From Planctomycetota bacterium (lineage in GTDB: Bacteria > Planctomycetota > UBA1135 > UBA2386), in assembly GCA_965228735.1 (NCBI GenBank), contig OZ245838.1:6784001-6848000 (forward strand): 64,000 nucleotides of DNA. The letters are read 5' to 3'. The notes beneath the pieces are model-generated. The model was not told where the DNA came from, ran no database searches, and worked only from the letters and a program-made list of their open reading frames with translations. The position numbers and the translations under genes were made by a program. Shown here piece by piece: positions 4,823 to 56,732 of the stretch (positions within the stretch are counted from its first letter, which is position 1; every line of letters begins with the position of its first letter).

Positions 4823-4855
4823 GTGGCGGATTTGAAACGGGTTCGGTACCGCCAC
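4823..4855. repeat. REP-like 33-nt repeat (family B), copy 1
   Basis: GTGGCGGATTTGAAACGGGTTCGGTACCGCCAC; near-identical to 16353-16385 and 56700-56732; terminal 7-bp inverted repeat GTGGCGG/CCGCCAC. Confidence 0.92.
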
Positions 4856-16230: not shown

Positions 16231-16385
16231 CTGGCGGCACCGAACCCGTTTCGAATCCGCCACCCCGAATCCGCCACCCGGGCTCACCCGCGAGCGCGGC
16301 CGCCAGCGCCGGTAGGGGGCCCGGTAGGGGGCCCAGTAGGGGACAATGGTGTGTGGCGGTTTCGAAACGGGTTCGGTACCGCCAC
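16231..16385. repeat. Inverted doublet of REP-like family B repeats (REPIN-like)
   Basis: 16231-16263 CTGGCGGCACCGAACCCGTTTCGAATCCGCCAC and 16353-16385 GTGGCGGTTTCGAAACGGGTTCGGTACCGCCAC in opposite orientation; spacer holds CCGGTAGGGGGC tandem units; lies between convergent genes. Confidence 0.92.
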
Positions 16386-44273: not shown

Positions 44274-44400
44274 CCCGGCGTACGGGTACCCGGCGTACGG
44301 GTACCTGGTTCATGTCGCCAGCATGCGCGATGGCCAGTGGATGATCCTGGCAGCTTGAACCAGGTACCGTACGGCCGGGTTCGGTACCGCCATCTGTTCA
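44274..44400. repeat. Composite repeat: family A inverted arms plus a partial family B copy
   Basis: CGTACGGGTACCTGGTTCA (44294-44312) and TTGAACCAGGTACCGTACGGC (44355-44375, identical to 4771-4791), then CGGGTTCGGTACCGCCA (44376-44392); lies between convergent genes. Confidence 0.9.
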
Positions 44401-45942
44401 CAGGTCGACGCCTGTCATCGTCAGGACGAGGCGTTGGACGTCGGCGAGGGTGAAGGTGTCGGCGCGGACCTCGGCGCGGATCGTGTTGTCGTCGATCTCG
44501 AGTTCGGTCGCGTGCACCCGGGTCGCGAATGCGAGGGCCTGGGCGTCCTCGCGCAGTTGCCACGGCAGCAGTCGCTCGGCCGCGATCGTCGGGCGCAGTT
44601 CGTCGACGCGGGTGACGAAGTCCTCGGCGTCGATCTCGTCGCGGGCCGTGAGTTCGATCGCGAGGCGCATGCCACGGTCGTCGAAGTCGATTCGGATCTC
44701 GCCGCCGCGGATCGCGGGCAGGTCGAGTGCCCGCAGTAGGGGCCAGACCTTGGAGCGTTCGGGCAGCACGATACGAAGTGCCGTGGGCGGGCCCTGCAGC
44801 AGCTGCCTGGCGCGGTCCGGCCGCGGCTTGCCGGCGCTGCCGCCCTTCGTCGCCAGCAGACCGTCCTCGAAGAACTCGATCTCGGCGTTGAGCAGGCGCG
44901 GGCGTTTGAGCTGCTGCTTCCGCGTCGGTTCGCCGAGCGGTCGCCGCCGCGGTTCGAGCTCGCCCGCGGCCTGCCAGCTCACGATCGCGGGGAAGTCGGC
45001 GTCGTTCTGCGCGCGCACGATCACGCAGGAATGATCGAGGCGGATGTTGCCGAAGCGGTGTGCGAACGCGAACGGCAGCTCACCGATCTGGTCTGCCATC
45101 CACTGCGCGCCGTTGCGTTGCGCCGGCGTCACGGGGCCGCCCGCGCGGACCAGCAGGTAGGCGGTCTTGTGGGCTGCGAACTGGCGCCCCGTCCGCGTCA
45201 GCCACGACACGTCCGGCAGGCGGGCATGATCGACGAGGATCGCGGCATCGAAACCGAGCGGCAGCTTCAACGTCGCGGGGTCGAGCCGGCGCCGTGGCGG
45301 CGACCAGGCCTCGCCCCGCAGTCGCTTCGTCGCCCGTTCGGCGCGACGGCGCAGCGGCTCCGGAGCGTCGGCGCGCGCGAGCCCCATGCACTCCGCGACC
45401 GCGCCCTTCACCCCGCGCCGTTCGAGCAGGTCGATCGCGAGCATCAGGTCGAACGTGCGCGCGCGATCGAGGTCGTCGTCGAGGTCGAGGTCCGCGACCT
45501 CGCTGATGGCCTGGCCGAGCAGCTGCCGCAGCGCGATGTCACTCGTGTCGATGCCGAGCGCCTCGAAGTGGAACACGGCGTCCGTCATCCCGAGCAGGTC
45601 GCCATGGCCGTGGCACAGCATCGCGGCCGTCGCGACCGCGCCGGAGTGCCGGTCGTACTCGTGCTCGAAACCATCGCGCAGCAGCGGCACGTAGTTGTCG
45701 CGCCCCGGAATCAACATGCCGGCATCGGCGAAGAAGAACATCTCGAGCGCGCCGTTCTGGCCGCGCCGCCAGCGCGAGGCTTCGAACCGGCCGCCGGCCC
45801 GGATTCGCGCCGCGATCGCCTGGGGCGCCTCGACCGGCCCGGGTTCGTCCGGCGTGCCGGGGGGCGGGGAGTGCTGGGGCGGCGCGAACGGCGCGAGCGC
45901 GAGGGCGAACAGCGCGGTGCGGGCACGGGACATCGCCGCCAT
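44398..45942 (-). CDS. Hypothetical secreted protein
   Basis: N-terminal signal-like segment; codon bias; no recognisable family. Confidence 0.55.
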   Translation of the reverse strand: MAAMSRARTALFALALAPFAPPQHSPPPGTPDEPGPVEAPQAIAARIRAGGRFEASRWRRGQNGALEMFFFADAGMLIPGRDNYVPLLRDGFEHEYDRHSGAVATAAMLCHGHGDLLGMTDAVFHFEALGIDTSDIALRQLLGQAISEVADLDLDDDLDRARTFDLMLAIDLLERRGVKGAVAECMGLARADAPEPLRRRAERATKRLRGEAWSPPRRRLDPATLKLPLGFDAAILVDHARLPDVSWLTRTGRQFAAHKTAYLLVRAGGPVTPAQRNGAQWMADQIGELPFAFAHRFGNIRLDHSCVIVRAQNDADFPAIVSWQAAGELEPRRRPLGEPTRKQQLKRPRLLNAEIEFFEDGLLATKGGSAGKPRPDRARQLLQGPPTALRIVLPERSKVWPLLRALDLPAIRGGEIRIDFDDRGMRLAIELTARDEIDAEDFVTRVDELRPTIAAERLLPWQLREDAQALAFATRVHATELEIDDNTIRAEVRADTFTLADVQRLVLTMTGVDL

Positions 45943-53467: not shown

Positions 53468-54624
53468 TCGGTCGCCGGCGTTTCCGAAGCGGCGCGGGGC
53501 TCGCGCTGGCCGCTCTGCTGGCCAGCGCGTGCATCACCGTCGTCGAGGAAGCGCCGCTCATCGGGGATCAGATGGAGCTGCCGCCGTTCGCGGTGGCGCA
53601 GACGATCCCGCTCGGCAAGCCCTCGCAGTCCGAGGGCGAGCGGCAGCTGATCCAGCTCTACGACGGCATCCTGCGCCGCATGCAGGAAGCCGCGGATGAT
53701 CGTCAGGTCGACGTGCTGTTCGACCTGCTGAACAGCTACCAGAAGCCGGGGCTGCCCGACTGGCTGGCGAACCGGCTCGCGGGCTACCGCGCGCTGGCGC
53801 ACGGCCTGCGCTTCCTCGAACACGCGGTTTCGCGCGCCGAGCTGCGGCTCGTGCCGGCGACGGTCGAGGGGCCGGCCGACGGGGCGGGCGCCGCGGTCGA
53901 GACCGCTGCGACGGCGACGCCCGAAGGCATGTCGACCCGGATGCCGCACCTGCCGCCGATCGGCGATCCGCTGCAGCTCGAGTTCATGCTGCCGCCGATG
54001 GTGACGCCGATCCGGCTCGGCGGCCACGACGACAGCGACCCCGTGACGTTCGCGATCGCGATCACCTACGAGGACCTCTACGTCCACGGCGGTTCGAAGA
54101 AGCCGCAGGCCCAAGGCTTCGAGTCGCTGCCACGCGAGTTCGTGCTGCAGGCCGGCGAGCCGCTGCGACTGCCGATCCGGTTCGCGATCCCGACGGACGG
54201 CGCGGTGCGACGCACCGTGCACGTGCGCGTCGACATCCTGCCGGGCTACGTCCGCGTCGAGAACGCTCGGACCGGCGACGGCAGCAGCGGCGAGGTGCGT
54301 GCCCCGATCGAGCGCCGCACGCTGGCGGCGAGTTCGTGGCAGCAGTTCCCGGCCGGTCACCGACCGATCGCCGAGCGCCCACTCGCGACCCTGCGCGAGG
54401 CCATTCGCCTCGGCGACAGCAAGCACTTCCCGCACGTCCTGCTCGGCGCGCTGTTCACGACCGGCCCGGACCGGCAGGAGGCCATCGCGCTGCTCATCGA
54501 CCAGGTCCGCTTCGCCAACGAAGCCCTCGCCATGGTCGCCACCGCCGCCCTGCGCGAGATCACCGAGGCCGACATCCCGATCGGCGACCGCGAGGCCTGG
54601 CTCCGCTGGGCCACCCGCCGCTGA
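53464..54624 (+). CDS. Hypothetical lipoprotein
   Basis: GTG start overlaps the rpsA stop; lipobox ASAC; HEAT-like C-terminus (ALREIT...DREAWLRW). Confidence 0.65.
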   Translation: MIGRRRFRSGAGLALAALLASACITVVEEAPLIGDQMELPPFAVAQTIPLGKPSQSEGERQLIQLYDGILRRMQEAADDRQVDVLFDLLNSYQKPGLPDWLANRLAGYRALAHGLRFLEHAVSRAELRLVPATVEGPADGAGAAVETAATATPEGMSTRMPHLPPIGDPLQLEFMLPPMVTPIRLGGHDDSDPVTFAIAITYEDLYVHGGSKKPQAQGFESLPREFVLQAGEPLRLPIRFAIPTDGAVRRTVHVRVDILPGYVRVENARTGDGSSGEVRAPIERRTLAASSWQQFPAGHRPIAERPLATLREAIRLGDSKHFPHVLLGALFTTGPDRQEAIALLIDQVRFANEALAMVATAALREITEADIPIGDREAWLRWATRR

Positions 54625-54640
54625 TGGCGGTACCGAACCC

Positions 54641-56632
54641 TTGCGCCAGGCGAAGCCTGGACGGGAGAAATCATGACCTGACAGGAATGAGAACCCCGTA
54701 TTGGAGTCCCGCGGGTGACGAAACCCGCCCGGCGAAGGCTAGCCACCAGCCGGAAGCGAGTCTTGCGTGGCGACCGGGTAACCGCCGCTGCGAAGCGTAG
54801 ACAGCGAGGATGTGGGCGGCGCGACTGAGCCCCGAAAGTACCGACAGCGAGAGAGCCGACGTGGTGGGTTCATCGGAAGGCAACATGGAAGGGCCGCAAC
54901 CGGCTTGGCCCGGAAGTCTCTCCGGGGTCCTGAGAACGACCGCACGCATCCATCGGACTCCCCAGGAACCTGGGATCCCCTCGATTGGTCCGATCGTCAA
55001 CTCCGGCTGGGGCCCGGAAACCAACTCTCCAGGGCCGCGACGTCGTGTCCGCGTCGGTGCCGTCAAGGAATCCGGACACACGGCCGGTACCGCCGAGCGA
55101 AGGAAACGAAGCGACGCGGGACGCCAACGAGGGAGTCGGAGTGCGTCATAGTACCAAAGAGTCCGGGGAACCCGCCCCACGGGGACCCGGCGGAGGGAAG
55201 GGCGTCACCGGCGACAAGGAACCGCTGGACGGACCGACCACGGAGACGACGGGCTCCGAGCAGGTCTCCACGAAACTCCGGCGGGTAGCGGAGCTGGCGA
55301 GGCAGCGACCAGACCTGGTCCTGACCACACTGGCACACCACATGGACATCGCGCTTCTGCGGGAGGCGTATCGCCGCACGCAGAAGTCCAAAGCTCCTGG
55401 TGTCGACGGCGTCACGGCTCGCGACTACGAGCAGGATCTCGAGGGCAACCTCGCGGACCTGCACGAACGCGCGAAGTCAGGGCGCTATCGCGCACCACCG
55501 GTCCGGCGCGTGCACATCCCGAAAGGGAAGGGTGGCACGCGTCCAATCGGAGTGCCGACGCTGGAGGACAAGGTCTTGCAGCGGGCGGTGACGCAAGTGA
55601 TGGAGGCGGTATATGAGCAGGACTTCTTGGACTGCTCGCACGGCTTCCGTCCCGGTCGCTCGCCGCACACGGCACTGGAATCGCTTTGGAAGCATGCGAT
55701 GTCGATGGGTGGCGGCTGGCTGTTGGAAGTCGACATCCAAGGTTTCTTCGACAACCTGGAGCCGACCCATCTGCGAGCGATCCTCGACCAGCGGGTGCGC
55801 GACGGAGTGTTCCGTCGACTGATCGACAAGTGGCTGAAGGCGGGGGTGCAGGAGGACGGTGCGCTGCATCGCTCTCGCAAAGGCACCCCACAAGGAGGCG
55901 TGATTTCGCCGCTGCTGGCGAACATCTATTTGCACGCAGTGCTGGACCGTTGGTTTGTCGAGGAAGTCAAGCCGAGGCTTGCCGGTCGCGCGGAGTTGGT
56001 CCGCTATGCGGACGACTTCGTGATCCTGTTTGCCGTCGAAGCCGATGCACGTGCGATGTCGTCGATCCTGGCCCAAAGGCTCGGGCGCTTCGGCCTCACA
56101 CTGCATCCGGACAAGACCCGGTTAGTCCGCTTCCAACCGCCCGAAGACGGCGCGGCGGGGAGCGGCACTTTCGACTTCCTGGGCTTCACCCATCACTGGT
56201 CACGCTCCCGGCGCGGCCGATGGACCGTGCAGCGGCGCACCACACGACACGTCGTGACCCGTACCCTGACTGGGCTACGGGATTGGTGCCGTCGCAATCG
56301 GCACGACAAGGTCCGCGTCCAGTACTCCACCCTGTGCTCGAAGCTACGGGGGCACTACCTCTACTTCGGCGTGACCGGCAACTCTGCTGCGTTACGTCGC
56401 GTATGGTACGAGGCCCGTCGCATCTGGCATCGGTGGCTGAGCCGGCGCTCGCGGGCGGCCTACATGTCGTGGGCCCGCTTCGAGCAACTGCTGCGTGCAT
56501 ACCCGCTTCCTCCGCCCCGGCTGACCCGGTCGGTCTACGCAGCGAGCCCTTGTCGCTGACGAGCCGGATGCGTTAGCCGCGCACGTCCGGATCTGTGGGA
56601 GCCCTGGGGGGAGACCCCCAGGGCCACCCGGC
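54641..56632 (+). mobile_element. Group II intron (bacterial, endonuclease-less, probably IIB-type)
   Basis: 5' end TTGCG; domain V GAGCCGGATGCG...CGCACGTCCGGATC (56561-56593); domain VI with bulged A 56626; removing it restores an intact 33-nt family B repeat; encodes an RT. Confidence 0.93.
55225..56559 (+). CDS. ltrA: Group II intron reverse transcriptase/maturase (start uncertain)
   Basis: APGVDG, RPIGVPTLEDK, GFRPGRS, GTPQGGVISPLLANIYLH, RYADD, FDFLGF and domain X; no HNH domain. Confidence 0.93.
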   Translation: MDGPTTETTGSEQVSTKLRRVAELARQRPDLVLTTLAHHMDIALLREAYRRTQKSKAPGVDGVTARDYEQDLEGNLADLHERAKSGRYRAPPVRRVHIPKGKGGTRPIGVPTLEDKVLQRAVTQVMEAVYEQDFLDCSHGFRPGRSPHTALESLWKHAMSMGGGWLLEVDIQGFFDNLEPTHLRAILDQRVRDGVFRRLIDKWLKAGVQEDGALHRSRKGTPQGGVISPLLANIYLHAVLDRWFVEEVKPRLAGRAELVRYADDFVILFAVEADARAMSSILAQRLGRFGLTLHPDKTRLVRFQPPEDGAAGSGTFDFLGFTHHWSRSRRGRWTVQRRTTRHVVTRTLTGLRDWCRRNRHDKVRVQYSTLCSKLRGHYLYFGVTGNSAALRRVWYEARRIWHRWLSRRSRAAYMSWARFEQLLRAYPLPPPRLTRSVYAASPCR

Positions 56633-56732
56633 GTTTCGAATCCGCCATCGACCAGGTTCGCCAACGCGGTTCGGCAGCGCCACCTGCGCTCGTCGCTCCG
56701 TGGCGGATTCGAAACGGGTTCGGTACCGCCAT
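56633..56732. repeat. Remainder of the family B doublet interrupted by the intron
   Basis: 54624-54640 plus 56633-56648 gives ATGGCGGTACCGAACCC|GTTTCGAATCCGCCAT; inverted partner at 56700-56732; degenerate copy near 56655-56683. Confidence 0.92.

Follow-up and report, generated by a model that had tools for sequence, protein, structure and literature searches.

The 64,000-nucleotide stretch of Planctomycetota bacterium DNA analyzed here (contig OZ245838.1, positions 6,784,001 to 6,848,000 of the forward strand; hereafter the window) carries a group II intron at 54641 to 56632 on the plus strand. The intron is present in ten copies in the genome, each at one point in the loop of a 33-nt hairpin repeat. 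It very probably spreads by reverse-splicing into this repeat on the lagging-strand template, with two RNA-DNA pairings of six bases each as guides. This mechanism is modeled on the endonuclease-less introns RmInt1 and RmInt2; splicing and mobility of the present intron are predicted.

Removal of 54641 to 56632 joined ...ATGGCGGTACCGAACCC to GTTTCGAATCCGCCAT, which restored a 33-nt near-palindromic repeat, and the reverse complement of this repeat was found intact 51 nt downstream, at 56700 to 56732. Inside the intron, GGGTTC (54866 to 54871, plus strand) is the exact complement of GAACCC at the end of the 5' exon (54635 to 54640), and GTACCG (54838 to 54843, plus strand) is the exact complement of CGGTAC (54628 to 54633). 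We refer to the intron hexamers as exon-binding sites EBS1 and EBS2, respectively, and to their partners as intron-binding sites IBS1 and IBS2; the first base of the 3' exon, G (56633), is the predicted IBS3. Rfam family RF02005 (group-II-D1D4-6) matched distal domain I (54720 to 54938, plus strand) with 123.5 bits, the gathering score being 49. In this alignment, EBS2 fell in an internal loop, on the 5' side of a long stem, and EBS1 in the terminal loop of the small hairpin that follows, and both columns are variable in the family consensus.

Covariation of the guides with their targets was analyzed in related introns, which were collected both from relatives of this genome and from 80 public-genome loci. 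Intron ends were set by profile searches, domain I was aligned, and 30 non-redundant introns with both ends readable (that of the window and 29 relatives) were retained; for the null distribution, exons were swapped among introns in 1,000 permutations. The EBS1 column formed all six pairs with the last six exon bases in 24 of the 30 introns and at least five pairs in 29, with a mean of 5.77 pairs (permuted mean 3.52, permuted maximum 4.13). Five introns had five pairs and the lowest, L030, had four; all were kept in the counts. The EBS2 column paired with a mean of 4.87 bases (permuted mean 3.77, permuted maximum 4.2). A preliminary description of this DNA had reported that deletion of the intron restores the repeat and that the two hexamers are complementary to the exon, and had taken them for EBS1 and EBS2. 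Both observations proved exact, and the loop positions of the hexamers and their covariation with the exons bear out the assignment.

The insert is a complete group II intron that encodes a reverse transcriptase (RT), without a detected endonuclease domain. It is 1,992 nt long, begins with 5' TTGCGCC and ends with CACCCGGC 3'. The RT/maturase open reading frame (55141 to 56559, plus strand) lies in domain IV and contains a YADD motif, about 180 residues beyond which it stops. In a Pfam search of this frame with a cut-off of E 0.001, RVT_1 (E 3e-32) was the sole family found; an endonuclease domain was not detected. The frame is open from a TTG at 54985, and the public gene call begins downstream of a GTG at 55141 (405 aa); our guess is that translation starts at this GTG, which stands behind GGGAG. 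A protein search with the RT yielded at least 8,000 candidates at E 0.001 or better. Among the matches listed, the closest non-identical homologues were 57 to 64% identical, and those with names are group II intron reverse transcriptases/maturases. Domains V and VI (56559 to 56632, plus strand) contain the AGC triad, a domain V loop of 5 nt and a bulged A seven bases from the 3' end.

Intron copies and the repeat family

A blastn search of the closed 7.19-Mb genome revealed ten copies of the intron, eight of them full-length (six at 100% and two at 99.95% identity) and two interrupted by insertion sequence (IS) elements. The matches run from base 1 to base 1992 of the intron. In all ten copies the insertion point lies between repeat positions 17 and 18, in the apical loop of the hairpin, with ...GGTAC[C/G]GAACC[C/T] on the left and G[T/C]TTC[G/A]A[A/C]TCCGCCA on the right. 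Thus, every copy is inserted at GAACC[C/T]|G of the repeat and none in unrelated sequence, as a test of the preliminary description called for. Beyond the repeat, the flanking sequences of the sites are unrelated. The occupied arms vary at positions 1, 11, 17, 19, 23, 25 and 33, while the intron is near-identical. Since the arms differ at their usual polymorphic positions but the intron does not, separate entries into already diverged arms are indicated.

The two broken copies are located at genome positions 339710 to 344444 and 6550593 to 6553893. One interrupter is a 1,425-bp IS256-like element with 16 whole and partial blastn hits in the genome. The other is an element of 1,298 to 1,305 bp, and two of its five full copies sit inside introns.

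A Hamming scan of the genome, in which at most 6 mismatches were allowed, detected 122 empty 33-nt arms, 66 of which keep the full 14-nt core CGGTACCGAACCCG. Outside these, there were only 6 matches at 8 mismatches and then background; we take the six to be the near-palindromic arm on its other strand, and one of them (window 16353) was seen as such. The arm folds with -9.1 kcal/mol (z -4.6) into a stem of 6 to 7 bp, a 3x3 internal loop, an upper stem of 3 to 4 bp and a 5-nt apical loop that holds the insertion point. Arms are paired convergently: there are 47 empty doublets with gaps of 45 to 60 nt, 45 of them with exactly 51 nt, and a partner arm accompanies each of the ten occupied arms, so that the genome contains about 60 doublets. 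In the 51-nt doublets, the arms are 84 nt apart, center to center. The spacers are about 39% identical between doublets (maximum 63%), which is roughly chance level at this G+C by estimate rather than computation; conserved spots are a symmetric CAA at 14 to 16 and TTG at 36 to 38. Arms that are nearly identical thereby flank spacers that otherwise have no sequence in common. The spacer is not a hairpin, as mirrored Watson-Crick pairs average 8.6 of 25, compared with 9.6 for mixed halves, and a miniature inverted-repeat transposable element was rejected because the internal sequence is not conserved between copies.

The arms abut stop codons. The arm was not found in 30 relatives, two of them of the same genus, with a 25-nt pattern and up to 2 mismatches. 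A Y1 (RAYT, REP-associated tyrosine) transposase was not detected either: PF01797 had no match in the genome, and the same search matched 6 of 14 control genomes. The element thus has the form of a doublet of repetitive extragenic palindromic (REP) sequences but, lacking a detected Y1 transposase, only resembles REPs and REPINs (REP doublets forming hairpins). The preliminary description had called the repeat REP-like; it is indeed a multicopy intergenic palindromic hairpin, and is organized as a doublet element rather than as a lone REP. The central proposal of that description, an endonuclease-less intron with EBS1 and EBS2 matched to such a repeat, is supported.

In the window, the occupied arm consists of a 5' half at 54624 to 54640 (plus strand), in which IBS2 is separated from IBS1 by one unpaired C, and a 3' half at 56633 to 56648 (plus strand). 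It is followed by the 51-nt doublet spacer (56649 to 56699) and by the partner arm (56700 to 56732, minus strand), which is an intact empty target in the rarely used orientation. The doublet takes up the entire gap between two co-directional genes: the TGA of the upstream gene (54622 to 54624) overlaps the first arm base, and the ATG of the next gene (56738) is located five bases past the second arm. The gap measures 2,105 nt with the intron and 113 nt without it.

The 13-nt IBS2-N-IBS1 core occurs in the window at 54628 (plus strand, occupied) and, on the minus strand, at 4839, 16369, 44377 and 56716. The latter four belong to the unoccupied targets listed in the preliminary description. All four exist, all on the minus strand, which the list had left unsaid, and one of them is not a whole arm. 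The first (4823 to 4855, minus strand) stands alone as an empty arm; its target is intact and lies in the rarely used orientation. The second is the intact minus-strand arm of an empty doublet (16231 to 16385) with an 89-nt spacer, the plus-strand arm of which (16231 to 16263, used orientation) reads CGGCAC; the single IBS2 mismatch reported for it, a T-to-C change, was thereby verified. The third, at 44376 to 44393 (minus strand), is the left half of an arm, intact through the G after the insertion point and fused to a different repeat. It belongs to a second small repeat family (window 44376 to 44415, minus strand), in which the initial 18 nt of the arm, with the complete intron target, are followed by CCGTACGG...CCTGGTTCA. 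This family has five copies genome-wide, all empty, and the others include those at genome positions 6118568, 6118678 and 6191208.

The window site is empty in one public assembly and is therefore polymorphic. Six public runs had contigs over the left flank; these are assemblies rather than reads, and some runs may share a source. In runs X1, X2, X3, X5 and X6, the left-flank contig continues 10 bases into the intron. In run X8, one contig of 6,998 letters joins 54640 to 56636 without the intron, and intron sequence is present elsewhere in X8. Empty and filled states of the site, the comparison suggested in the preliminary description, are thus both represented. The empty allele in X8 has eight letters where precise deletion leaves three, so the arm appears five bases longer. 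Intron-to-flank contig depth ratios ranged from about 4 to 12 across runs; they are not copy numbers and were not used.

Strand bias and the proposed homing route

Cumulative GC skew reaches its lowest point at 4,570,541 and its highest at 1,251,571, and dnaA is located at 4,568,607. With replication oriented in this way, the target strand is the lagging-strand template for nine of the ten introns, compared with 58 of the 122 empty arms (Fisher p 0.017); in these nine, the sense strand of the intron is the leading-strand sequence. By analogy with known systems, such a bias would be expected for an intron without endonuclease. Under the proposed mechanism, the excised lariat with its bound RT would pair with a single-stranded arm at the replication fork and reverse-splice after GAACCC, and a nascent lagging strand would then prime the copying of the inserted intron. 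The target is present on both strands of each doublet, so that every doublet has one arm in the susceptible orientation.

Several observations weigh against this interpretation. The copy at 2171142 has the opposite orientation, and a strand test on ten copies has a small sample. The intron begins with UUGCG and not with GUGYG; starts with TTGCG or TCGCG are, however, common among the 30 related introns, so the unusual first base is a trait of the lineage. The domain V/VI model RF00029 ends exactly at 56632 and scores 31.9 bits, below its gathering score of 40; in an alignment with five relatives, domain V, the AGC triad, domain VI and the bulged A seven bases from the end are conserved, and both helices are visible in the intron sequence. 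Furthermore, introns of classes IIE and IIF did not need EBS2-IBS2 for in vitro splicing (PMC3753933; this and the other papers given by PMC number are cited from excerpts of their text), so that the role of EBS2 here has to be read from the occupancy pattern by itself. Finally, 99 bases downstream of the intron are identical between the window copy and the copy at 1604013; they comprise the half arm, the spacer and the whole second arm (window 56633 to 56731, genome 1603914 to 1604012) and stop exactly at the end of the second arm. At least this pair of sites is therefore not fully independent.

The shared stretch also speaks for passive spread, in which the intron entered one repeat once and was then distributed by doublet transposition or by recombination or gene conversion between repeats; among the 47 empty doublets, spacer identity does not exceed 63% in any pair. 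We consider this very improbable. The other occupied doublets have unrelated spacers and flanks, and the occupied arms differ at the seven positions given above while the intron is identical. Even in the two look-alike sites, the left (5') half arms differ and the introns differ at base 1082, which fits a conversion tract better than a joint move: a tract limited by the intron on one side and by the second arm on the other would account for the 99 bases. Moreover, the window site is empty in one assembly.

It is similarly hard to credit that the intron reads the shape of the hairpin, as class C introns do at terminators and attC sites, with the base pairings being secondary. The target is indeed a stable hairpin with the insertion point in its loop, and introns outside class C are known to occur next to attC-like hairpins (PMC7923331). 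Unlike in IIC introns, however, a 6-nt EBS1 and a 6-nt EBS2 are exactly matched, and the insertion is inside the hairpin and not after it. Four copies of a related intron in another Planctomycetota genome (G031) share only about 8 upstream bases and no common repeat. In addition, arms with one IBS change keep the shape of the hairpin family, yet they are never occupied.

Loss of pairing in one arm orientation

In this one genome, 58 of the empty arms are in the susceptible orientation, with the target strand on the lagging template, and 64 are in the other. At least one of the 12 bases paired by the intron was changed in 43 of the 58 susceptible arms, compared with 7 of the 64 others. The difference was strongest at positions 6 and 7, inside IBS2 (37/58 versus 5/64 changed; Fisher p 4e-11), and was also detected at the other ten paired positions (10/58 versus 2/64; p 0.013). 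It was absent at position 11, which is unpaired between IBS2 and IBS1 (3/58 versus 7/64; p 0.33), at positions 1 to 4 (38/58 versus 43/64; p 0.85) and at positions 19 to 33 (43/58 versus 44/64; p 0.55). The variants at positions 6 and 7 were of six kinds (CG 13, GA 8, GC 6, GT 6, TG 3 and AG 1), with G-to-C as the commonest change. The two positions were never changed together (no doubles, against 17 and 20 singles; p 1.5e-4). We rejected the view that these variants are lineages, as they show no association with repeat subfamily or with the similarity of the spacers (0.385 versus 0.393).

The occupied sites complement this pattern. All nine occupied susceptible arms have either an intact core, a C-to-T change compatible with wobble pairing or a change of the unpaired base. 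An intact or wobble-compatible IBS was thus present in 9/9 occupied arms, while the 58 empty susceptible arms comprise 15 intact and 43 changed ones (p 3e-5). No doublet was found in which only the non-susceptible arm is changed. In the window, each of the four intact empty targets is in the rarely used orientation, and the only other arm in the used orientation, that at 16231, is the one with the IBS2 mismatch. The preliminary description had regarded the repeat as a renewable homing site. This is doubtful, because all four intact targets that it listed lie in the orientation avoided by nine of ten introns and because most arms in the used orientation carry IBS changes.

We interpret the orientation-specific loss of pairing as likely target escape, in which a single substitution in the paired bases would leave a susceptible arm unable to receive the intron. 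Most simply, one mismatch would be enough for protection, and protected arms would have built up either because insertions were selected against or because occupied arms were turned over. Whether this amounts to an arms race, in which recurrent fixed substitutions in lagging-template arms leave three quarters of the exposed targets immune while the opposite arms keep the consensus, is a closer call, and we put it just short of an even chance.

Alternatively, the asymmetry could be unrelated to the intron and reflect either a polarity of the doublet combined with strand-specific insertion or strand-specific mutation at the fork. Elements that are moved as single strands, such as those of the IS200/IS605 family, insert with a replication bias, which counts in favor of this explanation. 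So does the finding that in all six discordant doublets, in which both flanking genes run against replication, the changed arm follows replication and not transcription, as either process would give; gene strands were called crudely for this comparison, from open frames and G+C at third codon positions (GC3). By the same observation, transcription was discarded as the cause. We regard an origin unrelated to the intron as a serious possibility, though as somewhat less than even. No Y1 transposase was found in the genome with PF01797, the changes are of six kinds linked to neither subfamily nor spacer, and the doublets have no other polarity, since positions 1 to 4, 11 and 19 to 33 are alike between orientations. 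The excess extends to the other paired bases and not to the unpaired position 11. Likewise, the lack of double changes at positions 6 and 7 and the predominance of G-to-C argue against it.

If escape from the intron is the correct explanation, the repeat family provides a natural measure of the importance of each target base for retrohoming and of the in vivo restriction of mobility to the lagging-strand template, and it shows whether insertions carry a cost. If the arms race is true, it is a natural target-site resistance to a group II intron that is readable from a single genome. The occupied, intact empty and mutated sites can be counted in one closed genome, and the 14-nt core with its natural variants is a ready-made panel for a homing assay.

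Intron class and relation to known systems

The domain V loop UAGCC has 5 nt, as in three related introns (L121, L122 and L026), among them one on plasmid pRetMIM1e of Rhizobium etli Mim1. A 5-nt domain V loop is a hallmark of lineages E and F (PMC3753933). The RT is 50.7% identical to the intron-encoded protein on pRetMIM1e; the sole Mim1 protein in the supplement of PMC4244168 is assigned to class E and may be this 50.7%-identical protein. Judged from these features, the intron is probably IIB-like and of the E/F type, an assignment that does not separate E from F. Rfam was of no use for classification, as RF02005 matches L121 and L122 too and does not separate classes. Class C (IIC) was ruled out by the 6-nt EBS1, the 6-nt EBS2 and the insertion inside the loop and not after a stem-loop.

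Target sites of this intron lineage were compared in five other Planctomycetota genomes (G031 to G035). Among the intron copies of G032 whose 5' flank could be read, six are preceded by a common motif of about 25 nt that ends in GCCTGACC and contains tandem TAAAGTG units (loci within L093 to L114). In G034, two related introns with different EBS1 are inserted in opposite strands of one repeated palindromic sequence, nine bases apart (L095, L104; L098, L112). G033 has two sites with similar upstream sequence, and G035 has a complete copy at one site and a second 5' end on another contig. Together with the four copies in G031, described above, this suggests that tuning to a host repeat recurs in the lineage without being universal.

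The survival of group II introns in bacteria has been attributed to insertion at sites where little harm is done; the homing sites used are often located in other mobile DNA. The locus described here would represent a fourth niche, that of full-length guides tuned to a species-specific hairpin repeat, beside the target specificities that a review gives for bacterial introns, namely homing sites, terminators and attC sites (PMC4424553). REPs are known as landing pads for mobile DNA and are targeted by IS elements (PMC1525189). In the full-text literature, subscription journals aside, we found neither a paper on group II intron guides matching a REP/REPIN family nor a description of target-site escape from a group II intron.

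Most similar to the present case is RmInt2, a bacterial class D intron of Sinorhizobium meliloti GR4, for which both inverted repeats of ISRm17 serve as homing sites (PMC4615759, PMC5894124). Homing into other mobile DNA is likewise described for RmInt1 in ISRm2011-2 (PMC5894124). RmInt1 and RmInt2 are endonuclease-less and have a bias for the lagging-strand template, and when both inverted repeats of an element carry the target, one site is certain to be on the lagging strand (PMC4615759). The present intron resembles RmInt2 in being an endonuclease-less IIB-type intron guided by EBS1, EBS2 and EBS3 with a preference for the lagging-strand template, in having its target in both arms of an inverted-repeat element, and in its identical copies, which point to recent spread. 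It differs in the landing site: RmInt2 enters the terminal repeat of a transposase-encoding IS that is present about seven times, whereas the present intron is found in a 33-nt non-coding hairpin that forms about 60 doublets without coding capacity. The intron lineage is also different, with its 5-nt domain V loop and E/F type, and the excerpts of PMC4615759 and PMC5894124 report no target-escape pattern for RmInt2.

Class C introns share the use of abundant intergenic hairpin-forming landing sites without an endonuclease, but they have an EBS1 of 3 to 4 nt and no EBS2, read the stem-loop and insert after it (PMC4424553, PMC7923331), in contrast to the two 6-nt pairings and the insertion in the loop observed here. 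The class E/F introns Cl.be.I2 and Pe.th.I2 are similar as small IIB-like ribozymes with a 5-nt domain V loop, an EBS2-IBS2 pairing and an RT without endonuclease; in the excerpted text they were studied for splicing only, and no REP-type homing site is described (PMC3753933). In Pseudomonas putida KT2440, two of nine copies of a group II intron are associated with REPs according to a table in PMC1525189, a weak association for which the excerpt describes no guide-target pairing, compared with ten of ten copies at one nucleotide in the present genome. In summary, the machinery of the intron is ordinary, its landing pad represents a new variation on known homing behavior, and the escape pattern, if real, is the part worth following.

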